NCBI GenBank assembly: GCA_025457725.1
Contig: JALOTU010000032.1
Coordinates: forward strand, 1 to 11,072
From: Verrucomicrobiota bacterium
Lineage (GTDB): Bacteria > Verrucomicrobiota > Verrucomicrobiia > Limisphaerales > DSYF01
Direction: 5' to 3'
DNA length: 11,072 bases
The notes beneath the pieces are model-generated. The model made no database searches. It was not told where the DNA came from and saw only the letters and a program-made list of their open reading frames with translations. Made by a program: the position numbers and the translations under genes. Below are positions 1-11,072 of this stretch, piece by piece (the first letter of the stretch is position 1; each line of letters starts with the position of its first letter).

Positions 1-330
1 GGGCACGTCCTCCATGCGGTTCAGGTGGACGATGAGCTGATGGATCGGACTCAGTTCCATATCCACACCGCCAAGGTCGTAGCCGGCCTGATGAAACACG
101 GGCACGCTGGCGTTGATTTCCACCAGCGAGTCGAGCAGGAGCGTCTCGCTGTCCGCCTTCAGATCATCCAATCCAAGCGTCACATCGCTTTTCAATTGTT
201 TGAGCTGGCCGGTGGTCAGCGCCACCGCTTCGCGCAGCTGGGCGATCTTCGGCGGCGCGCTCTGGGCCGCAGCCTGCAACTGGGCGGCGCGCTCGCTGAG
301 GTTTTGGATCGTGCTGATAAACTTTTTCAT
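1..330 (-). CDS. Hypothetical protein, 5' portion only (N-terminal ~110 aa; the gene continues past the left edge of the window). Probable third gene of the flotillin/AAA+ operon.
   Basis: The reverse complement of 1..330 is an uninterrupted frame starting at ATG (complement of 328..330). Translation: MKKFISTIQNLSERAAQLQAAAQSAPPKIAQLREAVALTTGQLKQLKSDVTLGLDDLKADSETLLLDSLVEINASVPVFHQAGYDLGGVDMELSPIHQLIVHLNRMEDVP... An AAGGA Shine-Dalgarno-like motif (complement of 335..339) lies 5 nt upstream of the ATG and overlaps the TGA stop (340..342) of the upstream giant gene. It is absent from the ORF track, presumably because there is no in-window stop. No recognisable family motif. Confidence 0.5.
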   Translation of the reverse strand, partial: MKKFISTIQNLSERAAQLQAAAQSAPPKIAQLREAVALTTGQLKQLKSDVTLGLDDLKADSETLLLDSLVEINASVPVFHQAGYDLGGVDMELSPIHQLIVHLNRMEDVP

Positions 331-339
331 GATCGTCCT

Positions 340-3300
340 TCAGGAAGCCTCCCCGGGAGGCTTGGGGTTGTCGGTGGTCTGCTGGCCCAGCGCGCGGTGA
401 AACTGCTCAAGAAAGGCGCCTTCGTTTTCCAGCATCTCTTGCGTGAGCTGGATCTCCACGGTGCCGTCCTTGGCCCGCTCCACCAGCATGGTTTCCACAC
501 TGCGCAGGTAATCGCGCTGACGGCTGGCGATATCCTTCAAGGTGGCCAGCGTGCTGTGGAGCATTTCCATTTCGTGCATCAGGCTCACCATCTTGTCCGC
601 CATCGAACCGGTGTGGACCTCGGCAATGGCATTCTTGAGATCGCCGCGCAAGGCATCGAGCCCCTCCCCCACCCTGGATGCCAGAACGCTGAAATCGGCT
701 TCAGGCGGCGCTGCGGTCGACGAGGCCGCTGTCAGCCGCTCCTCGAGGGTCGCGCGCAGGGACTCCAGGCTTTTGCCCAACGGCGCAAGATCCAGGGCCA
801 CCGGCGGCGGGTTCTGATCCCTGGCCGCGTTTGCCTGCAAGGCGGACTGCAGGGACTTCAGCCCCTTTTCCACCGGCCCGAAGTCAAGCACCAGCGGCGC
901 GGGGGCGGACGCCTTGGACAACTGGCTTTCGAGGGTCTGCTGGATGGATTCGAGTCCGGATTGGAACGCGGACAACTGCGCCACGACGCGTCCCACCGGG
1001 TCGGACTGGTCGCCGCCGTGGGCCAGCAGGTTGCGTTTGAAGGTCTTCTTGATCTCAGCCCAGCGTGTCGCCTCCTCGGGCGTCAGCGCCCCCAGCAGTT
1101 CCTTGAACTTGAGGAGATTCGCCTCCGCCCCGGTGGTGAGCGTCTGCGACTCGCCCTTGTAATAATCCACCAGCAAGGCCCGCACCTCGTTGTCGTTCAT
1201 GATCGCCGCCACCTTGGAGGCCAGCCGGTTCATGTTGCGGTAGGACCCCTGCAGTTTGAAAGGCGGCTCGGTACGGTATTCGTCCGCCTGCGCCGCCGAG
1301 CGGATGTACTCCAGGTTCACCTTCAGCACCACCTCGCGCACCGTCACCAGCTTCCGCATCACCGACAGGATCTCCTCCACTTCCTGCGACGAGTAGCTGC
1401 CCTCGAACCCATCGGCGTCCCTGCCGCCGGACTCCGCCATGCGAATGAACGCGCGAATGTCCTTCTGGCTCTTGTTGGCCAGCGGCGCAAGCACGGGGTT
1501 CGAGGTGACAGCGTTCTCCAGATAGCTGGCTTTGAAGTAATGTTCGCTGCCGCCGATGATGTCGCCGAGATTGTAGGTGTCGGCGCGGTTGGCCAGCATG
1601 TCGGGGATCTTGAACTTCTGCCCGCTCTCCGTGTAGGGGTTGCCGGCCATGACCACGATGATCTTGCGTCCGCGCAAGTCGTAGGTGCGCGGCCGGCCGC
1701 GCCAGACCCCCTCGATTTTCCGCTGGGCATCGCACAACGAGATGAACTTCTGGAGAAACTCCGGGTTGCAGTGCTGAATGTCGTCCACGTAGATCATCGC
1801 GTTGTCGCCCATCTCCAGCGCGAGATTCAATCGCTGCACCTCCTCGCGTGCCGCGGCGTTGGGCGCCTCCTCCGGATCCAGCGACGTGACATTGTGCCCG
1901 AGCGCCGGCCCGTTGATCTTGACGAACACGATGCCCAGCCGGTTGGCAATGTATTCCATCAACGTGGTCTTGCCGTAGCCGGGCGGCGAGATCAACAGCA
2001 GCAGCCCCATCAGATCCGTTCGTTTCTGGTCGCCGGCCACCCCCACCTGCTTGGCCAGGTTGTCACCGATCAACGGCAGATACACCTCGTCCAACAGCTG
2101 GTTGCGCACGAACGAGGTCAATACCTGCGGCTGAAACTCCCCGAGCCGCAGCCGGGTTCGTTCCCGCTCGACCAGCTGCTGTTTCAGTGTTTGAAACTGC
2201 TGAAAGCGCGGGACCACCTCGCACTGGAATTGCTCAAGCCGCCGCCGGAAGGTGAAATAGTCGAACCGGTACTGGTTGCCCCGGATGACCGCATGGCTGC
2301 CTTTGAGGCCATCGAGATCCCGCGTCGTTTCCGCCTCCACCACCGCCCGCCGCAGCTTCCCCCCGCAAAACAGGAGCGCCGCAACTTCGTCGAGGTAACG
2401 GATGCTCTCCGTTTGGCCCAGCAGAAACCCCCGGATCCAGTCCCGGATCAACTCGAGCTCGCTGGCCGGATGCGTTTCCAGCGACTTGCGGACCTCGCGG
2501 AACACCGCCTCGCTCCCTTTGACGGCAAGGTGCTGCTCGAACCGGGCCACCAGGTCGTTCGCCTCCCGGGTGACGACAAATGCGTCGCTTGCGATCAGTT
2601 GATCAAACAGATATTGCCCGGCCGCGGCCGCCAGGGATTCCGGGAAGAGCCGCGTCTGCCGCGCAAAGTCCGTCACCAGCCCCTGCAGGGCGGCGATGTA
2701 ATCCTGCTGGGTGGCATCGCCGGGAAAGAGCTGATTGCGGGCAGCGAACCCGTTGAGTTTCGCGGACCAAAGCGCAACGGTTTCCGCCGGACAAAAACGA
2801 TGCCAGAAAACGGCGGCACAGGCACGGGCTGCCGGTTCAAAGCAGGCCAATTGCAACGACAGATGGGCGGACGCCAGGGCGTGTAGGATCCGCGCCGCGT
2901 CCAGGTCGTGGATCCCCTTGGTGTAGCCCTCCTGATACCGGGCACCGATGAACTCCTGGACGAGGGACAGGCAGGCTTCCTCCGACGCAGCCGCCACGGC
3001 GAGCCGGCTTGGATGTCCCTCTCCGGGGGCATGAGCGGACTCACTTCCGCCGCTGCGGTTCAGCAGCGATTCCCACAACCGAAAGGCCAGATACTCGGCG
3101 CGGTAAACCGACGCGTTTTCCGAAACCACCTCCTGCTCCCATACGTCGCTCAGGGAGAGGAACACTTCATCGGTGATCCGGTCGAAGTAATTGGTGCTGG
3201 TCAGGTGGAGGTACTGTACGCCCTGGCGGTTCACCACGGTCAGGTCCAGCGGCTGGGTGTTGGTGTTGAACCGGTGCCCGCCCAGCTTGATGATCGCCTG

Positions 3301-5913
3301 GCCATCCACGAACAGCTCCTGGCGATCCTTCAACTGCCGCACCGCCTCCTGCTGCGCGCTTTTCAGCCGTCCCTGCAAATCGTCGGCTTTGACCGAATCG
3401 CCCAGCCCCACCAGCTGCTCGATCGTCTCGCGAACCTTGGCGCTCATCAGGTCCGACGCCATGTAGGTGTTGATTTCCCCGATCGTCTTGAACCCGGCCA
3501 GCCGGTTTTGGATCACCTTGAGGATCCGCTCGGCCGCGGTCATCAGCGCGTTCGAGCGGCGGTTGCGCTGCTCGATCAACGCGACCTTGCGTTGTTCAAA
3601 CGCCTCGTAGAGCTGCGTGCGCCGCTCGGCCAGCTGCACCGTGTAGTCCTCGAAATCCGCGAACGCGCCCTCGAGTTCCTCCAGCTGAACAGAGATCCGG
3701 TTCAGATACTCCTCGCACCGGGCCGGGGTGTCGCACAGGTCGAGGTAGCCCGCGGCGGACTGGCTCAACAGCTTGAGCTGCGCGGCAAACTGCGCGGCGC
3801 CTTCGCTCGCCACCAGCGCCTTCAGCCGCTTCTTCAACGCGGCCTTCACCTGGTTCAGGGTGGAATAGACCGCGGTGATGCCGTCGATGATCCGCGTGGT
3901 CTCGGTGGCGTCCTCGATCTTCAGGCTGTTGACGATCTCGACCAGCATCTCCAGCTCGCCCCCCGCCCCGGCCACCGTCTTCTCGATCTCGCGGCCTTCG
4001 GCGACCTTGGCGATCGATTCCACCCGCGCGAGTTGATCGTCCGCCTGCCGGCGATACGGCTCCAGGGCTTCGGGTTGCAGCAGAAACCGGACACACGCCC
4101 CGGACAAGTCTTCCGTCTGCCCGACGACGGCAGCCTCCAGTTCCTCGACCTGCGCGACCTCGACGTATCGCACCTCCTTGAGGGTGATGAGTTCGCCGCG
4201 CAGCTGCCGCAAGGCGGTCAAGTGGCCCACATAATCATTGAGCGACTTGAAGCTGGAACGGCGCATCTCCTGGAATCGCCCCTCGCAAAGCTGGCGGGCC
4301 TGCGCGACCCGCTGTTTCGCCTCCTGCTGCAGGCGGCGCACCTTGTCGAACTCGTCCACCGCCTTGTCGGCCGCCTCGCGCACCTGCTGGATCGCGGCCT
4401 GCAGCCCAAAGCCCTCCTCGCCGCGCAGCCAGGGATACGCATCCAGCACGGTGCCGCAGCGCTTGACCAGGTCGGTGTAAAGAGCGGCATAAGGCTGCTC
4501 CTTTTGCACCAGGGTCAGCACCTCGTTGCACTCGGCGAGGCAACGCACCACCTCCTTGTTTCCCACCTGGTAAAGAAAGGCCTCCCGCTTTCCCGCCGGC
4601 TCGTGGCCGGGTTCGTGGAAGGGTGTCTGACGCAGCTGGATCAGGTGATGCTTTTGCGGCTCGGCTTCGGCCCGAAACAGCACCATCTGCCCGTTGGGAA
4701 ACAACGTGAACCCGTGGCAGCTGATGCGCTCCTCGACCTTGTGCAGGATCAAACGGTAGGGCATCAGCACATACTCGCCCGTCAGCCGGTTATAGAAGAC
4801 GTAGAGCACATCCTCACCATTCGGCGCCTGCACGGCCCGCTCCATGATCATGCCGCGTTCCCGTCCCTCAAATTGCTTCAGCTCGCCCGTGGCCAGATAG
4901 CAGCCATGCGGAAAGATCAGACCATGCTCCTCCGGCAGCAGCGCGCAGGATTGGCCGATGGAATCCACGCGCACCACCGATTGCTGCTTCTCATTGTAGA
5001 TGAAGTAACGGGTGTCGGTCTCCTTGTAAGGCCGGATCTTGAGCAGGATGAGGTGCCCCAGGATGGCATAGCCGACCTCCGCATCGTCCACCTTCTGGTA
5101 CCGGTCATCGACCGGCTCGGCATAGATGCCCTGTCCCGTGCGGGTGTTGTCCTCGACCTTGATCGTCAGGTCGCCCCCGGTGCAATCCACGAACACGCGG
5201 TCCTCGATGGAGATGTGCGGATGATCGCCGTAGTGATACGATTCCCGATCGGGAATGCGCCACCGAAACGGGTGCGGGTCGGGAAATCCCACCCGCCGAT
5301 ACTCGGCCTCGGCGCGCCCGTCCACAAACCGCAGCCGGCCGTCGTTGAACGCCCACTTGAACACCGCGATGTCATTCGCCCCCGGGCCGGTGGCGAACAC
5401 CATGTAAAGCTTGCCCTCGATGACGGAGAATTTGCGGAAGGCGGTCTTCTCATAGACGTTGTACAGCCGCTGGAAATCGATGAGAAACTGCTTGTCCTGG
5501 AGCGGGTCCAGCCCGGTTTCCTTGAAGGTGCCGGAATCCTCATCCCGCTGGTAGACGGCAAACACATCCCCCAATTCCACCTGCTTCTTGAGTCCAAACT
5601 GGACGTTGAACCCGAAGAGGAACCGGCCGTGACCCAGCTGCACCATGTCCCGCGGCACGCAGTTGTGCGCCGTGATGATCCGGTCGGCCTGGAGCAGCTT
5701 GTGTTCGATGGATCCGAACACCTCGCGCCGCCGGGCATCCAGCCTGGCCATGGACTCGCGGAGGGATTCCCCCTGCGTCCGCAGCCGCTGGCGGATGATC
5801 TCATACGTGGCGCTGCCCAGCGTCTCAGCGGCAGGCGGCGCGGCGGGATCCGGCTTCGACCGGACCGCGTCCTCCGACTTCCCCGAAGGAGTTTTATCTT
5901 TGGTTTGGACCAT
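340..5913 (-). CDS. Giant (1857 aa) multidomain protein with one central MoxR/dynein-like AAA+ ATPase module, a beta-rich N-terminal domain, long coiled-coil segments and a repeat-containing C-terminus. Function uncharacterised. No signal peptide or TM segment evident.
   Basis: Single uninterrupted 5574-nt ORF with an ATG start at 5913 (MVQTKDK...) and TGA at 340..342. It contains an unmistakable P-loop (LLLISPPGYGKTTLMEYIANRLG; aa 1310-1317 = nt 1963..1986). Walker B is MIYVDDIQH (aa 1373-1381 = nt 1771..1797). This is followed by NPEFLQKFISLCD...RKIIVVMAGNPYTESGQ...IPDMLANRADTYNL, which matches the MoxR/AAA_5 pattern [DEINR]-NP-x-LL-x-M-E...hhhATQNP...LP-x-A-x-LDRF. The overlapping plus-strand ORFs (25..2886, 2908..5958) have no motifs and are judged antisense shadows. 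Confidence 0.85.
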   Translation of the reverse strand: MVQTKDKTPSGKSEDAVRSKPDPAAPPAAETLGSATYEIIRQRLRTQGESLRESMARLDARRREVFGSIEHKLLQADRIITAHNCVPRDMVQLGHGRFLFGFNVQFGLKKQVELGDVFAVYQRDEDSGTFKETGLDPLQDKQFLIDFQRLYNVYEKTAFRKFSVIEGKLYMVFATGPGANDIAVFKWAFNDGRLRFVDGRAEAEYRRVGFPDPHPFRWRIPDRESYHYGDHPHISIEDRVFVDCTGGDLTIKVEDNTRTGQGIYAEPVDDRYQKVDDAEVGYAILGHLILLKIRPYKETDTRYFIYNEKQQSVVRVDSIGQSCALLPEEHGLIFPHGCYLATGELKQFEGRERGMIMERAVQAPNGEDVLYVFYNRLTGEYVLMPYRLILHKVEERISCHGFTLFPNGQMVLFRAEAEPQKHHLIQLRQTPFHEPGHEPAGKREAFLYQVGNKEVVRCLAECNEVLTLVQKEQPYAALYTDLVKRCGTVLDAYPWLRGEEGFGLQAAIQQVREAADKAVDEFDKVRRLQQEAKQRVAQARQLCEGRFQEMRRSSFKSLNDYVGHLTALRQLRGELITLKEVRYVEVAQVEELEAAVVGQTEDLSGACVRFLLQPEALEPYRRQADDQLARVESIAKVAEGREIEKTVAGAGGELEMLVEIVNSLKIEDATETTRIIDGITAVYSTLNQVKAALKKRLKALVASEGAAQFAAQLKLLSQSAAGYLDLCDTPARCEEYLNRISVQLEELEGAFADFEDYTVQLAERRTQLYEAFEQRKVALIEQRNRRSNALMTAAERILKVIQNRLAGFKTIGEINTYMASDLMSAKVRETIEQLVGLGDSVKADDLQGRLKSAQQEAVRQLKDRQELFVDGQAIIKLGGHRFNTNTQPLDLTVVNRQGVQYLHLTSTNYFDRITDEVFLSLSDVWEQEVVSENASVYRAEYLAFRLWESLLNRSGGSESAHAPGEGHPSRLAVAAASEEACLSLVQEFIGARYQEGYTKGIHDLDAARILHALASAHLSLQLACFEPAARACAAVFWHRFCPAETVALWSAKLNGFAARNQLFPGDATQQDYIAALQGLVTDFARQTRLFPESLAAAAGQYLFDQLIASDAFVVTREANDLVARFEQHLAVKGSEAVFREVRKSLETHPASELELIRDWIRGFLLGQTESIRYLDEVAALLFCGGKLRRAVVEAETTRDLDGLKGSHAVIRGNQYRFDYFTFRRRLEQFQCEVVPRFQQFQTLKQQLVERERTRLRLGEFQPQVLTSFVRNQLLDEVYLPLIGDNLAKQVGVAGDQKRTDLMGLLLLISPPGYGKTTLMEYIANRLGIVFVKINGPALGHNVTSLDPEEAPNAAAREEVQRLNLALEMGDNAMIYVDDIQHCNPEFLQKFISLCDAQRKIEGVWRGRPRTYDLRGRKIIVVMAGNPYTESGQKFKIPDMLANRADTYNLGDIIGGSEHYFKASYLENAVTSNPVLAPLANKSQKDIRAFIRMAESGGRDADGFEGSYSSQEVEEILSVMRKLVTVREVVLKVNLEYIRSAAQADEYRTEPPFKLQGSYRNMNRLASKVAAIMNDNEVRALLVDYYKGESQTLTTGAEANLLKFKELLGALTPEEATRWAEIKKTFKRNLLAHGGDQSDPVGRVVAQLSAFQSGLESIQQTLESQLSKASAPAPLVLDFGPVEKGLKSLQSALQANAARDQNPPPVALDLAPLGKSLESLRATLEERLTAASSTAAPPEADFSVLASRVGEGLDALRGDLKNAIAEVHTGSMADKMVSLMHEMEMLHSTLATLKDIASRQRDYLRSVETMLVERAKDGTVEIQLTQEMLENEGAFLEQFHRALGQQTTDNPKPPGEAS
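616..906 (-). repeat. Degenerate ~25-30-aa tandem repeats (three copies) in the C-terminal region of the giant protein (coding repeat, protein level).
   Basis: Translation of this segment gives three similar units: VLDFGPVEKGLKSLQSALQAN, then ALDLAPLGKSLESLRATLEERL, then EADFSVLASRVGEGLDALRGDLKNAI. All share the pattern [LA]D[FL]..[VL]..(K/G)L.SL...L. Coordinates were derived by counting back from the stop at 340..342. Confidence 0.4.
1470..2110 (-). other. AAA+ ATPase module (MoxR / AAA_3-AAA_5-like) inside the giant protein, approximately aa 1270-1480: Walker A, Walker B, sensor-1-like GNP and the ANRAD segment.
   Basis: Walker A PPGYGKTT at nt 1963..1986 (minus strand). Walker B IYVDDIQH at 1776..1797. 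Downstream KIIVVMAGNPYTE and IPDMLANRADTYNL are colinear with the MoxR-family sensor-1 and LP..A.LDRF motifs. Boundaries are approximate, estimated by eye. Confidence 0.7.
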
Positions 5914-6029
5914 CGGTCAGATCATGGGCGCACCATGCGGATCATGTTCTCAAAGTGATGACTGCAACCGGTCGCTCGGTGGCTGCCAGCGATTCGAGTC
6001 TCCGGCGACGCTCCGCGCGCAGCCAGGCC
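5914..6029 (-). promoter_or_regulatory. 116-bp intergenic spacer between the flotillin stop and the giant-ATPase start. It may hold an internal promoter or translational signal. It contains a CATGATC direct repeat just upstream of the ATG.
   Basis: On the minus-strand transcript the sequence reads ...GAGAACATGATCCGCATGGTGCGCCCATGATCTGACCG-ATG. CATGATC occurs twice, 12 nt apart, ending 7 nt before the start codon. No convincing rho-independent terminator hairpin or SD motif is seen, so read-through and co-transcription are likely. Confidence 0.2.
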
Positions 6030-8201
6030 TCACACCTTGGCCGTCGCCTTGTCCCCCAGAGCCACCGAGGCCATCACCTCGGACAGCCCGGTATCCCTCG
6101 CCATTTCCTGAGCGGATTTGAGCACTGATTGGAGGGCGCTGTCGTGGGTGCCGGCCAGCAACCTGGCCAGCAACGCCGCCACGGTCAGGTTCTTCAAGTC
6201 CTCGGTCTTGATTCCGAACTCCTTGACCCACTGCCGCAGCTGGGTCTTGAAATGCTCGGGATCACCGTTGAAGAAGGTTTGCTTGATGTCGGTCAGCGTG
6301 CTGCTGCTGCCGACCAGGCGATCCACCGACTTCCCGCCGCCCACGGCGCGGACGATCTTCTCGAAGAAATCGTTTTCGCCGCCGACGATGTCGATTTTGG
6401 AATTCTTCAGCGCCTCGCCCACCACCTCGGAGTGGGCGCGGGCGATGTCGCGATTGACGTGGATGGCGGCCAGTTCGACATCCCGCTCCTTGGCCAGTTT
6501 GAGCCGGAATTCCTCGTGTTGCTGCGTGGTGGCCTGGAAGAGCTTCATGGACTTGGCCTTTTCCTCGATGCCCTTGGCCTCGGCCAGCAGTTTGGCCTCG
6601 ATGCCGGCGGCGGTGGCGAGTTCCTTGTCCTTGATGCCCTCCGCCTCGGCCTCCGCCTGGGTCTCGGTCACACGGGCATGCGCATCGCCCTTGACCTGTT
6701 CCACCTCGGCTTCGGCAACGCCCATTTCCCGGACGGCCGTGGCATCCACCTTGCGGGCCCCGGCCTTGGCGATGATCACCTTGGCTTCGGCCAGTCCCCT
6801 GGCCGCTTCCTGCGCCGCCACGCCCTCGGCTTCCTGCTCCATGGCATGGCGCTTCTTCTCGGACGCCTTGGCCTGCGCATCCGCGATGGTTTGGATGCGT
6901 TCGGATTCCTTCAAGGCGGCTTCGCGCGCGGCGTCGGCTTCCGTCACGGTCTTGATCTTCTGCCCCTCGGCCAGGTTGCGTTCCACTTCCTTCTGCGCCT
7001 CGGAAGCGACCACCTTTTCCACCTGATCCTTCTTGGCGTTCATGTCCGCCTCGATGAGTGTCACCTGGCGGACGCGTTCGGCGGTCATCTGCGCCTCGAT
7101 ATTGAGTTTCTCCTCCTCCTGCTGGACCACCGCCTTCTGCTCGGCCACCACCACGGCGCGCTTCCGTTCCACCTCGACGGCGGCATCGGCCACCTTGACC
7201 TGCTTGTCCATGTCGGCCAGGGCAACCACGCGCTCCCGGCGCACCCGGGCCTCCTCGCCCTCCTGCTGGGCTTCCTGGGCCAGGCGCTGCTTCTCCTTGG
7301 TCACCGTGTATTCCCGCTCCTGCACGGCGCGCTTCATGTCCTCGGTGCGCAGGCTGATCGCCTCATCCGCCTCGAGGCGTCGGGATTCGACCTCCTGCCG
7401 CCGGCTCTCGATGACCTTGCGCGCCTCCGCCTCCTCGGTGGCTTTCACCTCGGTGATCGCCCGGGTCTGCTTGGCATTGTCCTCCTCGTTGCGACGCAGC
7501 TGCTCGCGCTTGGCGATGTCCGCGTCGGCGTTCTCCTTTTCGATCTGCACGCTGGCCCGCTTGGTGAATTCGTTGGCGATGACCGCCTCGCGCTGCGTGA
7601 TCTCGGTGATCTTCTTGATGCCCTCCGAATCCAGCACATTATCCGGATCGTGCTGCTCCAGCGGGGTTTGTTCGAGGTAGTCGATGGCCACATCCTGCAG
7701 GAGGAATCCATCCAGGTCCTTGCCGATGGTATCCTGGATCCGGTCCCGGAACTTGATGCGCTCGGTGAAGAGTTCATGAAACTCCATCTGCTTGCCGGCC
7801 GTTTTCAGGGCTTCGGAGAACTTGGCTTCAAACAACTCGCGCAACTGCCCCACATCCGACACGCGCTCGGGGGTCAGCATCTGGGCCACCTTTCGGACAC
7901 TTTCCTCGTTGGCATCCACCCGGATGTAGAACGCCACGGTGATGTCCGCCCGGATGTTGTCCTTGCACACCAGCCCGTCCTTCCCCTTGCGCGCGATCTC
8001 GAGCTTCTTCACCGAGATATCGACGATGTGATAGGTCTGCAGCAAGGGCACCCGGATCATCCAGTCGAACGACACCTTGAGACCGCCCCAGCCGGTCTTC
8101 ACGCCCGCCCGGCCGGGTTGGATCTTGCGGATGCAGAAAGGGATGGCGACCAGCATGGGCAGGCCAATGAGTACCACCAGGGCGATGAGAATGTATTCCA
8201 T
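6030..8201 (-). CDS. Flotillin-family / SPFH (band 7) domain membrane protein, 723 aa, with an N-terminal transmembrane anchor, an SPFH domain and an extended Glu/Ala-rich coiled-coil ('flotillin repeat') region.
   Basis: ATG at 8201 and TGA at 6030..6032. The N-terminus MEYILIALVVLIGLPMLVAIPFCIRK is a hydrophobic helix. It is followed by an SPFH-like core (GWGGLKVSFDWMIRVPLLQTYHIVDISVKKLEI...VAFYIRVD...). Next comes a long EA/KE/RQ-rich heptad-like region (AEAEVEQVKGDAHARVTETQAEAEAEGIKDKELATAAGIEAKLLAEAKGIEEKAKS...). The C-terminal tail (IVGGENDFFEKIVRAVGGGKSVDRLVG...) is typical of bacterial FloT/YqiK-type flotillins. The overlapping plus ORF 6129..8219 is featureless antisense. Confidence 0.9.
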   Translation of the reverse strand: MEYILIALVVLIGLPMLVAIPFCIRKIQPGRAGVKTGWGGLKVSFDWMIRVPLLQTYHIVDISVKKLEIARKGKDGLVCKDNIRADITVAFYIRVDANEESVRKVAQMLTPERVSDVGQLRELFEAKFSEALKTAGKQMEFHELFTERIKFRDRIQDTIGKDLDGFLLQDVAIDYLEQTPLEQHDPDNVLDSEGIKKITEITQREAVIANEFTKRASVQIEKENADADIAKREQLRRNEEDNAKQTRAITEVKATEEAEARKVIESRRQEVESRRLEADEAISLRTEDMKRAVQEREYTVTKEKQRLAQEAQQEGEEARVRRERVVALADMDKQVKVADAAVEVERKRAVVVAEQKAVVQQEEEKLNIEAQMTAERVRQVTLIEADMNAKKDQVEKVVASEAQKEVERNLAEGQKIKTVTEADAAREAALKESERIQTIADAQAKASEKKRHAMEQEAEGVAAQEAARGLAEAKVIIAKAGARKVDATAVREMGVAEAEVEQVKGDAHARVTETQAEAEAEGIKDKELATAAGIEAKLLAEAKGIEEKAKSMKLFQATTQQHEEFRLKLAKERDVELAAIHVNRDIARAHSEVVGEALKNSKIDIVGGENDFFEKIVRAVGGGKSVDRLVGSSSTLTDIKQTFFNGDPEHFKTQLRQWVKEFGIKTEDLKNLTVAALLARLLAGTHDSALQSVLKSAQEMARDTGLSEVMASVALGDKATAKV
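6520..7510 (-). repeat. Low-complexity Glu/Ala/Lys/Arg-rich coiled-coil (flotillin EA-repeat) coding region. It is visible at DNA level as reiterated gcctcggcc/ggcctccgcc-type motifs.
   Basis: The protein segment ~aa 230-560 is dominated by E, A, K, R, Q and V in heptad-like spacing. The plus-strand DNA shows repeated GCCTCGGCC / CTCGGCCTCCGCCTGG motifs (e.g. 6581..6670). Boundaries are approximate. Confidence 0.5.
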
Positions 8202-8454
8202 AGCGTTAGAAGACGTTGATTGTTGATTCCCTCAGTTCCGCCGGGCGTTCTTCCACAGTGCGCAAACGCCACCCCTCCCGGTCGGCTGCACCCTGCGGCG
8301 GAACTGTGGGGTGAATAACAAACTTGAAAAGCCCGCGCCAATACAATTCAAACCGGATTTTGGAAAATCAGATGCAGCGGTGGAAACGGGCCGGTCAGAA
8401 TTGACTGGGCACTCGACCCTCAGAACGCCTATTCTCCGCGCCGGCTCGCGTCTC
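8202..8454. promoter_or_regulatory. Divergent intergenic region between the flotillin operon (minus) and pheT (plus). Presumed to contain both promoters. Noticeably AT-richer than the flanking coding DNA. Contains a 14-bp perfect palindrome GATTTTGGAAAATC at 8356..8369.
   Basis: 253 bp between the two divergent start codons. There is a local drop in GC (aatacaattcaaaccggattttggaaaatcagatg...). TTGAAA (8324..8329) and TTGACT (8401..8406) hexamers are present, but neither has a properly spaced -10 element. The palindrome has 6-bp arms and a 2-bp spacer. Confidence 0.3.
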
Positions 8455-11007
8455 ATGAAAGTCACCTTAAAATGGCTCAAACAATACGTTGATTTCGACT
8501 GGTCACCCGGGGAACTCGCCGAACGCCTGACCATGCTCGGCCTGGAAGTCGAAGGCGTGGAACACGTGGGCGGCGGGTTCGATGGCATCGTCGTGGCCCA
8601 GGTTGTCTCGCGCGATAAGCATCCCGACGCCGACAAGCTCTCCGTCTGTCGTGTCAACGACGGTCAGGGCGAACGTCAGATCGTCTGCGGCGCCCATAAT
8701 TTCAAGGCCGGTGACAAAGTCCCGCTGATCCTCCCCGGCTCCACGCTGGCGCCCAGGAAGGCGGGGGAGAAGCCCTTCACCATCAAGGTGGGCAGGATTC
8801 GCGGCGTGGAATCGCACGGGATGATGTGCTCCCATGAGGAACTGGGGATTGATCCGGAATCCATCGGGCTCAAGACCGAAGACGGACTCCTGATCCTGCC
8901 GCCAAGCGCCCGGGTCGGACAACCCTTCGCCGACTTCCTGGGCCAGGGCGACAAGGATGTGGTCTTTGACCTTGAAACCACGCCGAACCGGCCGGACTGG
9001 AACAGCGTCATCGGCATCGCCCGCGAGATTGCGGCACTGACGGGAAATCCGCTGCGGATGCCCGAGATCCAATGTTCGAAGTCCGATGTCCAAACCCGAG
9101 ACCTGGTCGCCGTCCGTATCGAGGATGCCGAGTTGTGCCCCCGCTACACCGCCCGCGTGATCCAGGGCGTGAAGGTCGGCCCCAGCCCGGACTGGCTGCG
9201 GAGTCTCCTGACGAAAGTCGGCATTCGCAGCATCAGCAATGTGGTGGATGTCACGAACTTTGTGATGATGGAGATCGGCCAGCCTCTGCACGCGTTCGAT
9301 TACCGCTTGATTGCACCCAGCGGTTCCGGAGATCGCGCAGACGCCCCCGCCGCCCGAGACGTCGCCGGCCAGCCCACCATCGTTGTCCGTCGCGCCCGGG
9401 CGGGTGAGACCTTCAAGACGCTCGACGATCAAGACCACACGCTTACGAACGAGCACCTGCTGATCGCCGATGACCACAGGGGCATTGCACTCGCCGGCAT
9501 CATGGGCGGGCAGAACACGGAGATCACGCCCCAAACCGTGGATGTGCTCATCGAGTCGGCCCATTTCAATCCCACCAACATTCGCCGCACCAGCAAGTCG
9601 CTGGGATTGCGCACGGACTCGAGCTATCGCTTTGAACGCGGGGCCGACATCGGCATCTGCGATTGGGCCAGCCAGCGCGCCGCGCGGCTCATCCTTGAAA
9701 CCGCCGGGGGCAGCCTGGCGGAAGGGGTGGTGGATGCCTATCCCCATCCCGCCCCGACCAAGGAGATCACCTTGCGCCCCGCCAAGGTGAGCGAACTGCT
9801 CGGTGTTTCATTGAAGCCCGCGGAGATCTCGTTCTACCTGGGTCAACTGGGCCTGAAATCCTCCCAGACCGTCCGGCGGCCGGCAGCCGTGGAATCCGAG
9901 TCCCCGTCCGACCCACTGATATTCGAGATTCCGACCTTCCGGGTGGATCTCAAACGCGAGGTGGATTTGATTGAGGAGGTCTGCCGGTTGCACGGCATTG
10001 ACAAAATCCCGTCCACACCTCCACGCGGCGCCCATGGGGTCAACGAATTCGATCGTGTCTATGATGAACTGGCGGAGGCGCGACAAATCCTGACCGGACT
10101 GGGCCTGCACGAGGCCATGGGACAGACATTGGTGGCGCAATCCGAGGTCCAGGGTCCAAAAGCCGGAGAAGTGGTCGGGCTGGCCAACCCGTTGAGCAGC
10201 GACATGGACGTGCTGCGACCGTCCCTGCTCCCCGGACTCATCCAATCCCTGCGTCACAATATCGCCCGGAAGAACAACGATGTGGCCTTGTTTGAGATCG
10301 GACGGGTTTTCAGCACCGCAAAGGTTTCCACATCCGCGGATGGCCGAGCCGGTGGCCCAGTTCACAAGGAAACGCGCACTGTGGCCATCGCCCTGACCGG
10401 CCAGCGCCATCCCAGCTTCTGGAGCGGACCGGATCGGGCCGCCAAGATGGATGTCAATGACTTGAAGGGGATACTCGAGGAATTCCTGGAACAGTTCGGC
10501 ATTCGCGGCGTGACGTTTCAGCGGCGGCCCGAGGCGGTCGAGCCGTTCATCGAATCCGCCGCGGTCACGCTCGGCGGCAAACTGCCCCTGGGCGAGATCG
10601 GGCTGCTGCATCCGAAAGTCGCGCGGCACCACGACCTCCGCGATCCCGTGCTGCTGGCCGAGCTCAGCCTCGACGCCCTGCTGGCGAGACGCAACGCATC
10701 CAAATCCTTCAAACCCCTGCCCCAGTTTCCGTCCATCCGGCGCGACATCGCCATGATCGTGCCTGAAGCCACCACCCACGAGGAGGTGCTCGGCGTGGCG
10801 CGTCGGGCCAGGGCCGCCCATCTCGAGAGCGTGGAACTGTTTGATGTCTTTCGCGGCAAGCATGTGCCCGCGGGCCAGAAGAGTCTGGCCTACGCCTTCA
10901 CCTACCGTTCACCGGACCAGACGCTCACGGACAACGAGGTAAGCCGGGAACACGCCAAGGTGGTTGGAGCCTTCAAGGAGGAGTTGAAGGCGGCGGTCAG
11001 GGAGTAA
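8455..11007 (+). CDS. pheT: Phenylalanine--tRNA ligase beta subunit (PheT), 850 aa.
   Basis: The N-terminus MKVTLKWLKQYVDFDWSPGELAERLTMLGLEVEGVE is the canonical PheT start. Other recognisable domains:
- tRNA-binding (Myf/EMAP-like): VVAQVVSRDKHPDADKLSVCRVNDGQGERQIVCGAHNFKAGDKVPLILPGSTL...GVESHGMMCSHEELGI;
- B3/B4;
- B5: RPAKVSELLGVSLKPAEISFYLGQLGL...;
- C-terminal FDX-ACB: ...SVELFDVFRGKHVPAGQKSLAYAFTYRSPDQTLTDNEVSREHAKVVGAFKEEL.
The TAA stop is at 11005..11007. The track ORF starts at ATG 8311, in the same frame 48 codons upstream. That extension lies in AT-richer DNA and is not PheT-like, so the ATG at 8455 is preferred. The minus-strand ORFs 8503..9747 and 9808..10863 are antisense shadows. 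Confidence 0.9.
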   Translation: MKVTLKWLKQYVDFDWSPGELAERLTMLGLEVEGVEHVGGGFDGIVVAQVVSRDKHPDADKLSVCRVNDGQGERQIVCGAHNFKAGDKVPLILPGSTLAPRKAGEKPFTIKVGRIRGVESHGMMCSHEELGIDPESIGLKTEDGLLILPPSARVGQPFADFLGQGDKDVVFDLETTPNRPDWNSVIGIAREIAALTGNPLRMPEIQCSKSDVQTRDLVAVRIEDAELCPRYTARVIQGVKVGPSPDWLRSLLTKVGIRSISNVVDVTNFVMMEIGQPLHAFDYRLIAPSGSGDRADAPAARDVAGQPTIVVRRARAGETFKTLDDQDHTLTNEHLLIADDHRGIALAGIMGGQNTEITPQTVDVLIESAHFNPTNIRRTSKSLGLRTDSSYRFERGADIGICDWASQRAARLILETAGGSLAEGVVDAYPHPAPTKEITLRPAKVSELLGVSLKPAEISFYLGQLGLKSSQTVRRPAAVESESPSDPLIFEIPTFRVDLKREVDLIEEVCRLHGIDKIPSTPPRGAHGVNEFDRVYDELAEARQILTGLGLHEAMGQTLVAQSEVQGPKAGEVVGLANPLSSDMDVLRPSLLPGLIQSLRHNIARKNNDVALFEIGRVFSTAKVSTSADGRAGGPVHKETRTVAIALTGQRHPSFWSGPDRAAKMDVNDLKGILEEFLEQFGIRGVTFQRRPEAVEPFIESAAVTLGGKLPLGEIGLLHPKVARHHDLRDPVLLAELSLDALLARRNASKSFKPLPQFPSIRRDIAMIVPEATTHEEVLGVARRARAAHLESVELFDVFRGKHVPAGQKSLAYAFTYRSPDQTLTDNEVSREHAKVVGAFKEELKAAVRE

Positions 11008-11072
11008 GTGAGGCCGAATCAACTCGACGGGAAGCCTTGGAAACGCCGGCATTCCCGGGCACTGGCGGCTGT

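Follow-up and report, generated by a model that had tools for sequence, protein, structure and literature searches.

A conserved gene pair of a YqiK-type flotillin and a giant AAA+ ATPase, and its lineage variant in Verrucomicrobiota

Results

Gene content of the locus

We analysed a stretch of 11,072 nucleotides (nt) from a Verrucomicrobiota bacterium (GenBank assembly GCA_025457725.1, contig JALOTU010000032.1, positions 1 to 11,072), hereafter referred to as the window. Its minus strand carries three co-directional genes, in the order flotillin, giant ATPase and a third open reading frame (ORF) that leaves the window. An earlier reading of the DNA, made from the letters and ORF translations (henceforth the sequence-only reading), had described these genes as closely packed, with a 116-bp gap between the first two. 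The ORF coordinates agree with that description, and the gap is exactly 116 nt. The features of the locus are as follows.

6030..8201, minus strand: YqiK-type flotillin gene, 723 amino acids (aa), from the ORF list and the match to Escherichia coli YqiK
5914..6029, minus strand: flotillin-ATPase spacer, 116 nt, from the ORF coordinates
340..5913, minus strand: giant cytoplasmic ATPase gene, 1857 aa, from the ORF list, with more than 4000 homologues
1..330, minus strand: 5' part of the third gene, 110 codons, with its start site ATG at 330-328; the gene exits the window

The ATPase gene follows a flotillin gene in all loci examined

The conservation of this gene neighbourhood had been set beforehand as the decisive check of the sequence-only reading, and the adjacency was found to be conserved. 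We collected 52 related loci from species-representative genomes, mostly of Verrucomicrobiota with a few Planctomycetota, and counted adjacency wherever the N-terminal end of the ATPase was present together with 2.4 kb or more of sequence upstream of it (n=33). A flotillin gene was located directly upstream on the same strand in all 33 of these Verrucomicrobiota/PVC loci. We also inspected nine distant loci, seven of them from Bacteroidota, Actinomycetota, Deinococcota and Gammaproteobacteria (Hymenobacter, pQBR103, Streptomyces, Deinococcus, Proteus, Vibrio and Nonomuraea) and two from PVC outliers, Opitutales (L034) and Phycisphaerae (L035). An orthologous 640-720-aa flotillin/SPFH gene was immediately upstream of the ATPase gene in each of them (9/9). 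In the loci examined, the linkage of the ATPase to flotillin is strict across at least six phyla. The converse linkage fails, as no ATPase gene follows yqiK in E. coli K-12.

The cassette was present in every related Verrucomicrobiota locus examined, at 62-78% identity, which looks like vertical inheritance within the phylum. Among the relatives, the spacer between the two genes varies widely in length (about -19 to 2487 nt). In at least seven species (loci L021, L023, L029, L043, L045, L046 and L047) it contains an IS200/Y1 transposase gene encoding 150 aa (about 450 bp; for example L029:9219-9671), with 70-93% identity between species. Inverted REP-like repeats flank this transposase in at least four of the loci (L021, L029, L043 and L046), and their translations recur as '..HSVSCG..', '..LTLWAT..' and '..QRELWV..'. 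The transposase resembles a REPtron/RAYT held at a syntenic site, and the window does not contain it.

The pair probably corresponds to a published operon

The sequence-only reading presented the locus as a candidate undescribed system, a claim that has to be given up. Ravi et al. (2024, mSystems 9:e00847-23, PMC11237479) reported an operon that encodes YqiJ/YuaF with three transmembrane (TM) segments, a TM-Band-7-flotillin protein and a "beta-propeller + coiled-coil + AAA+ ATPase", and that is often joined by PspA and a CesT/Tir chaperone. The prototype neighbourhood is that of Dokdonia donghaensis PspA (ANH61663.1). The same paper states that shortened operons are widespread; these comprise flotillin and YqiJ/YuaF, in some cases with the ATPase, and some lack PspA. 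The roles it proposes are in sub-membrane dynamics and assembly. In the passages drawn on here, the ATPase is described by its architecture and context, without an accession; we compared the Hymenobacter locus with the published operon by gene order. The Hymenobacter locus matches the published order gene for gene, and we therefore provisionally equate the ATPase family of the window with the ATPase of Ravi et al.

The window shares with the published operon the flotillin subfamily, the gene order, the orientation and, in all likelihood, the giant ATPase family, and the Hymenobacter ATPase is 48% identical to that of the window. The two differ in that the window clade has no YqiJ/YuaF, PspA or CesT/Tir gene and adds a downstream orphan gene of ~270 aa and an ATPase tail of ~200 residues. 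The orphan gene, the tail and the loss of partners are not mentioned in the passages of Ravi et al. on which this comparison is based. The core flotillin-ATPase association has thus already been catalogued in silico; the window carries a lineage variant in which YqiJ was lost and an orphan third gene and an ATPase tail were gained. Our literature search retrieved no experimental study of the flotillin-giant ATPase module, and a 2026 survey of SPFH proteins in Pseudomonas aeruginosa makes no mention of the giant ATPase.

The giant protein carries a single AAA+ module

The giant ATPase belongs to a family of more than 4000 homologues that NCBI names 'DNA repair ATPase'. A hydrophobicity scan detected no TM segment, and the protein is therefore cytoplasmic. 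This agrees with the sequence-only reading, as does the presence of one P-loop AAA+ module in the 1857 aa. We delineated the following regions.

4435..5763, minus strand: DUF3686 (PF12458), residues 51-493, Pfam E 1.9e-162
ATPase residues 494-~860, minus strand: helical stalk, which contains DUF7902
3820..4071, minus strand: DUF7902 (PF25472), residues 615-698, Pfam E 3.1e-24
2164..3335, minus strand: conserved middle region, residues ~860-1250, from the cross-phylum alignment
ATPase residues ~1290-1640, minus strand: the whole of the single AAA+ module, from the alignment, Pfam and the AlphaFold2 (AF2) model
1621..2001, minus strand: AAA+ P-loop core, residues 1305-1431, with Walker A/B and sensor-1
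1963-1989, minus strand: Walker A, SPPGYGKTT, residues 1309-1317
1780-1785, minus strand: Walker B, D1377-D1378
340..936, minus strand: ATPase tail, residues ~1660-1857, helical/low-complexity

DUF3686 is N-terminal in full-length family members (~1600-1900 aa), and 671 representative clusters match it at E<=1e-3. The N-domain in this position is called a beta-propeller by Ravi et al. (PMC11237479). For the Pfam description of this domain, 'ATPase involved in DNA repair', we found no support in the domains, the gene context or the literature searched; the literature search returned no paper linking DUF3686/PF12458 to DNA repair.

The giant ATPase is collinear with its homologues in other phyla, at 38-48% identity over residues ~32-1660. 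Searches of plasmid and chromid records with tblastn recovered homologues in Hymenobacter, Streptomyces, Nonomuraea, Deinococcus, Pseudomonas fluorescens pQBR103, Proteus, Halomonas, Vibrio and Photobacterium. The tblastn matches in other phyla stop near residue 1650-1675, leaving the ~200-residue tail unaligned.

The sequence-only reading had the AAA+ module embedded between a beta-rich N-domain and more than 1000 residues of coiled coil. This is no more than roughly right: the module lies in the C-terminal third and follows a conserved region (~860-1250) that is not coiled coil and accounts for much of the sequence ahead of it. An alignment of nine sequences from five phyla revealed a series of invariant residues in this middle region: H880, N885-T886-Q887, W925, S931-E932 and H1002-D1003-x-D1005. 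It has no Pfam match, and a profile search of the Protein Data Bank (PDB) with it was empty. Pfam scans of separate pieces of the ATPase (residues 700-1000, 1000-1240, 860-1250 and 1620-1857) also gave nothing significant. The middle region could hold a second activity or a binding site.

An AAA+ fold is confirmed for the giant protein by the Walker A and B motifs, sensor-1 (N1425), an arginine (R1443, just beyond the 1305-1431 core span) and an alpha/beta domain with a lid. Its Walker B motif has Asp-Asp in place of the usual Asp-Glu, and both this pair and the IQH that follows are invariant across nine sequences from five phyla. Judging from this motif, ATP hydrolysis may be slow or regulated.

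The clade to which the AAA+ module belongs is less clear-cut. The sequence-only reading assigned it to the MoxR/dynein type; the AAA+ fold stands, and the MoxR assignment is tentative, with classical AAA scoring alike. In Pfam the AAA+ region scored 32.6 bits with classical AAA and 30.0 bits with AAA_5, the latter aligned over nearly its full length. Sequence and profile matches in the PDB favoured p97, VAT and Rix7 and covered the Walker A stretch only, and we dropped the assignment by PDB profile because of this limited coverage. Foldseek searches with the AAA+ model returned FtsH, NorQ, Cdc48 and MCM mixed together with similar E-values. The AF2 model of residues 1180-1700 has a pLDDT of 70. 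Its strands 220-225 and 228-233 (residues ~1399-1412) are placed between a helix (205-214) and a strand (238-245), and in this moderate-confidence model the hairpin between helix 3 and strand 4 is a predicted pre-sensor-1 beta-hairpin. In the established classification of AAA+ proteins, this hairpin is absent from classical AAA proteins. We consider a MoxR-like clade plausible.

Compared with the MoxR ATPases RavA, NorQ and CbbQ, the giant protein is seven times larger, has the DD form of Walker B and has no von Willebrand factor A (VWA) partner in its operon; in addition, classical AAA scores as well as AAA_5 and Foldseek ranks FtsH and p97 equally. The lack of a VWA partner had been pointed out in the sequence-only reading, and indeed no VWA domain was found in the window or in the neighbour genes of the loci inspected.

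The flotillin has an N-terminal membrane anchor

The flotillin consists of a TM anchor, an SPFH/Band_7 domain, a helical region of ~400 aa and a conserved C-terminal region. Two of these parts were located as follows.

8118..8201, minus strand: codons of the N-terminal TM segment, flotillin residues 1-28, from the Kyte-Doolittle profile
7701..8126, minus strand: SPFH/Band_7 domain, flotillin residues 26-167, Pfam PF01145

Residues 1-28 form the sole region of the flotillin in which a 19-residue window has a Kyte-Doolittle mean >1.6, and basic residues (R25, K26 and R31) occur at or just after this segment. By the positive-inside rule, the bulk of the protein, with its SPFH and helical parts, is predicted to be cytoplasmic. 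When residues 1-217 were scanned alone, PF01145 matched with E 2.1e-12 (47.9 bits against a cut-off of 23.6). Scanned at full length, the flotillin matched no Pfam family even at E<=10; it also had no sequence match in the PDB, and a profile search of the PDB gave a marginal QmcA match only. The empty full-length Pfam scan is a false negative, apparently caused by the long helical region, rich in Ala, Glu and Lys, which trips the HMMER bias filter. The precomputed Pfam field is also blank for the top 120 homologues listed for this protein, all of them >=76% identical.

Homology to E. coli YqiK was supported by BLASTP (31% identity over 452 aa, E 1e-36) and by hhalign comparison of the flotillin-orthologue profile with YqiK (probability 99.95%, 390 aligned columns). 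The exact flotillin sequence is labelled 'flotillin family protein' by NCBI and 'YqiK' by JGI. The TM segment, the Band_7 match and the YqiK match bear out the TM-anchored flotillin/SPFH protein of the sequence-only reading. Orthologues in five other phyla share 34-39% identity and long invariant motifs with the window protein.

In the E. coli yqiJK and Bacillus subtilis yuaFG systems, the likeness to the window lies in the YqiK homology over the TM segment, the SPFH domain and the first coiled coil (31%), and in the N-terminal anchor. The B. subtilis yuaFG genes encode an NfeD-like protein and FloT. The window flotillin differs from E. coli YqiK in being 170 residues longer and in its C-terminal part, which has no match to Flot (PF15975): residues 440-723 did not match this family, whereas the YqiK control matched it at 6e-41. 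Comparison of the last 280 residues with YqiK 380-553 by hhalign gave a probability of 4.8%, which is not significant. An AF2 monomer model of the flotillin was rejected as too poor to be searched by fold (pLDDT 62.6, pTM 0.21, with pLDDT <50 at residues 62-144 in the SPFH domain).

YqiJ and PspA are facultative neighbours

A gene for a multi-TM protein of ~200 aa related to DUF1449/YqiJ precedes the flotillin gene in L034, L035, L053-L056 and L058-L060, i.e. in all nine distant loci. In the Phycisphaerae locus the membrane protein ahead of flotillin has a YqiJ_N Pfam match. No tblastn match to the YqiJ-like gene was obtained in the window, in L001-L033 or in L036-L052. The sequence-only reading named NfeD proteins as the usual operon partners of flotillin and the giant ATPase as a non-canonical one. 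A replacement of the NfeD partner does not hold for the module as a whole: the YqiJ-like gene is still directly upstream in other phyla, in Opitutales and in Phycisphaerae, and only the Verrucomicrobial clade of the window is without it.

PspA genes are similarly variable. The order in Hymenobacter is CesT/Tir-PspA-DUF1449-flotillin-ATPase, and in pQBR103 the flotillin-ATPase pair is preceded by YjfI, PspA and other genes; this locus also has polyamine genes. In a Phycisphaerae metagenome-assembled genome (MAG; L035:5726-17338, JACZKQ010000073.1), PspA, PspA, YqiJ, flotillin, ATPase, PspA and a BamB/PQQ_2 beta-propeller gene are co-directional and closely packed. PspA is absent from the window and, within 10 kb, from all core Verrucomicrobial loci. 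The linkage of the flotillin-ATPase pair to YqiJ and PspA is facultative: in most lineages other than that of the window a YqiJ/YuaF-type gene stands ahead of the pair, which frequently forms part of PspA/IM30 operons for envelope stress. One of the three PspA genes in L035 sits where the window clade has its orphan third gene.

On the Hymenobacter plasmid (NZ_CP010056.1), a gene for a LexA-family regulator of the helix-turn-helix (HTH) and S24 peptidase type (L053:2577-3362) is divergent from the operon. It corresponds to the gene labelled 'cHTH+Protease' in the Dokdonia neighbourhood of Ravi et al. and is a candidate for a dedicated regulator.

A third gene in the Verrucomicrobial loci

In the relatives, the third gene encodes a soluble protein of ~265-285 aa. 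It starts with a helix, which is followed by a conserved alpha/beta domain and by a linker that is rich in Pro and Ala and contains an SSFFE motif; its C-terminal peptide, DPLARFKKMPDL (DPLARFKKMP), is strongly conserved. With the 110-aa fragment of the window as the query, the gene was found directly downstream of the ATPase gene in 26 of the 33 loci that extend far enough downstream; with the full-length L029 protein as the query it was detected in 29 loci overall. Neither the ORF nor the C-terminal motif was found in other phyla or in the seven Verrucomicrobial loci without a third gene.

The family has 234 homologues in a database of 5.8 billion proteins, none with a functional name, and the lone Pfam match among them is a coiled coil in one member. 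The third protein has no TM segment, and Pfam gave nothing significant for its central domain. Its identity with PspA was rejected by hhalign (probabilities of 2.5% and 0.3%); the match to Pfam PspA_IM30 (E 0.004) covers 50 helical residues and scores 17 bits against a cut-off of 33.9. A YqiJ-like identity was likewise rejected by hhalign.

The ATG of the third ORF (330-328) lies 9 nt past the TGA of the giant gene (342-340). The sequence AGGA is immediately 3' of this stop, and GGGGAGG occurs within the final codons of the giant gene, so that the ribosome-binding site of the third gene lies right against the 3' end of the giant gene or overlaps it. The overlapping junction of stop codon and ribosome-binding site in the sequence-only reading is thus roughly as described, with the ATG beyond the stop. 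Such a junction is compatible with translational coupling, and the third gene is probably coupled to the ATPase gene in this way.

Flanking features of the window

Two further features complete the window.

8202..8310, no strand assigned: divergent intergenic region between flotillin and pheT, from the sequence, with pheT identified by its domains
8311-11007, plus strand: pheT (phenylalanyl-tRNA synthetase beta chain), with B3_4, B5 and FDX-ACB domains

The minus-strand ORFs 8503-9747 and 9808-10863 were rejected as genes. They have no family matches, and we read them as shadows of pheT because the sign of their AT skew is opposite to that of the minus-strand genes. As pheT is divergent and the upstream minus-strand ORFs are shadows, the operon begins at the flotillin gene. 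The region 8202..8310 is presumed to be its promoter region. No sigma-70 consensus match was found there, and we note that this consensus is uninformative for Verrucomicrobiota. A scan of 5800-8500, including the 116-nt spacer, found no terminator-like site on the minus strand, and Rfam and tRNA scans of the window gave no matches. Translation of pheT probably begins 3' of the GTG at 8311, given that no Pfam domain starts before residue 93 and the relatives align from residue ~49 at the earliest.

The gene pheT adjoins the cassette in just 2 of the 52 related loci, and the wider gene context is therefore not conserved. The flanking genes in Verrucomicrobial loci have housekeeping or metabolic functions, including pheT, RND efflux, pantothenate kinase and biotin ligase.

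Discussion

The presence of flotillin upstream of the ATPase in 33/33 related and 9/9 distant loci means that a functional partnership of the two proteins is well supported by genomic context. Flotillin may recruit or cage the ATPase, as the sequence-only reading proposed. We lean, with modest confidence, towards reading the locus as the Verrucomicrobial version of a widespread and ancient module, composed of a YqiK-type flotillin and a giant AAA+ ATPase, that would act as an ATP-driven remodeller of flotillin/PspA assemblies in membrane maintenance.

The identities of the genes, the order of the domains, the cytoplasmic location of the giant protein and the gene linkage are established above; from these we infer a physical interaction, an oligomeric state, a direction of remodelling and a role for the third protein as follows. 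The flotillin, anchored in the inner membrane by its TM helix, would build a scaffold of SPFH and coiled-coil parts on the cytoplasmic side. The giant ATPase would oligomerise via its single AAA+ module and reach this scaffold, or PspA polymers recruited there, via its helical stalk and DUF3686 domain. Powered by ATP, it would put together, open or take apart such membrane-bound polymers when the membrane is maintained or repaired, a role analogous to that of Vps4 on ESCRT-III or NSF on SNAREs. In the window clade, the YqiJ-like partner would have been lost, and the downstream soluble protein may be an adaptor or a substrate that docks by its C-terminal peptide.

Vps4-ESCRT-III and PspF/PspA resemble the module in that an AAA+ ATPase is genetically coupled to PspA/IM30 genes in several phyla, and the conserved C-terminal peptide of the third protein recalls, in principle, MIM-type docking motifs. 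We also considered a narrower form of the remodelling model, in which the ATPase is a dedicated opener or disassemblase of flotillin cages (a 'Vps4/NSF for SPFH scaffolds'), and perhaps of PspA as well, and in which the DPLARFKKMP orphan is an adaptor that replaced the YqiJ/NfeD-type partner. We regard this narrower proposal as tentative and doubtful as it stands.

Several points weigh against the reading as an ATP-driven remodeller. The contact between flotillin and ATPase is deduced from gene context, and a Walker B motif of Asp-Asp that is invariant in five phyla does not guarantee vigorous ATP hydrolysis. A transposase of ~450 bp splits the gene pair in at least seven related species; its toleration between the genes means that tight co-translation is not required. 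No PspA gene is present in the window or within 10 kb in the core Verrucomicrobial loci, which makes the link to PspA an indirect one in this genome. The ambiguous AAA+ clade would accommodate substrate threading (classical/Clp-like) as well as a MoxR-like action. The invariant H, D and E residues of the middle region could carry a different activity.

An alternative that retains the flotillin-ATPase partnership is membrane-protein quality control, in which flotillin would corral damaged or unassembled membrane proteins for an AAA+ ATPase that extracts or unfolds them without a fused protease. There is precedent for the combination of SPFH proteins with AAA+ proteins, namely HflK/C with FtsH and prohibitins with the m-AAA protease. 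As in these systems, an SPFH-family scaffold is here genetically coupled to an AAA+ ATPase; the strict gene linkage, the presence of FtsH and Cdc48/p97 among the top Foldseek matches and the closeness of the Walker A stretch to the classical AAA clade of p97, VAT and Rix7 all fit this alternative. FtsH itself is a membrane-embedded protease of ~650 aa with a periplasm-facing cage, whereas the ATPase described here is a soluble protein of 1857 aa with no protease domain that would meet a cytoplasm-facing flotillin, and there is no orthology between the two. We consider quality control unlikely.

The sequence-only reading also listed an abortive-infection or defence role. In such a role the module would sense membrane perturbation and kill or arrest the cell. 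PspA was originally identified as phage-induced, and defence systems often include giant NTPases. In several non-Verrucomicrobial hosts, moreover, megaplasmids or accessory replicons carry the cassette (pQBR103, linear Streptomyces plasmids, and Deinococcus and Hymenobacter plasmids). Against this, PADLOC-DB 2.0 yielded no meaningful match: the best was LmuB (E 1.2e-5, 22.7 bits), on the coiled-coil stalk, the rest had E>=1e-3 on the P-loop, and flotillin and the third ORF had none. The domain scans detected no effector domain (nuclease, protease, TIR or pore), the Verrucomicrobial flanks are housekeeping or metabolic genes, and all related Verrucomicrobiota loci examined carry the cassette, at 62-78% identity, in a pattern that looks vertical. 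A defence role is very improbable on these grounds.

Least credible of all is a DNA repair ATPase that lies beside flotillin by chance or because DNA transactions are tethered to the membrane. The database names (NCBI, Pfam), a weak RuvB_N P-loop match and the LexA-family regulator divergently upstream of the Hymenobacter operon point towards it. Against it, the similarity to RuvB is confined to the ~50 residues that surround Walker A and scores 24 bits, where the cut-off is 282; the scans revealed no domain for DNA binding and no nuclease or helicase; the conserved neighbours (flotillin, YqiJ and PspA) are all membrane proteins; and the literature searched holds no link of DUF3686/PF12458 to DNA repair.

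The module has so far been known only from a gene-neighbourhood survey, and its ATPase bears the misleading name 'DNA repair ATPase'. Homologues occur in genetically tractable hosts, among them Pseudomonas fluorescens SBW25 with pQBR103, Proteus mirabilis, Vibrio campbellii, Streptomyces and Deinococcus. The Verrucomicrobial variant shows that the YqiJ-type partner is dispensable and adds an orphan partner.

The function of bacterial flotillins is debated, as is the way in which the closed SPFH cages seen by cryo-electron microscopy (cryo-EM) open. An ATPase that lies beside flotillin in every locus examined stands out as the prime candidate for the active part that has been missing. If it does open flotillin cages, it would provide the first enzymatic handle on the loading, opening and recycling of closed SPFH assemblies.

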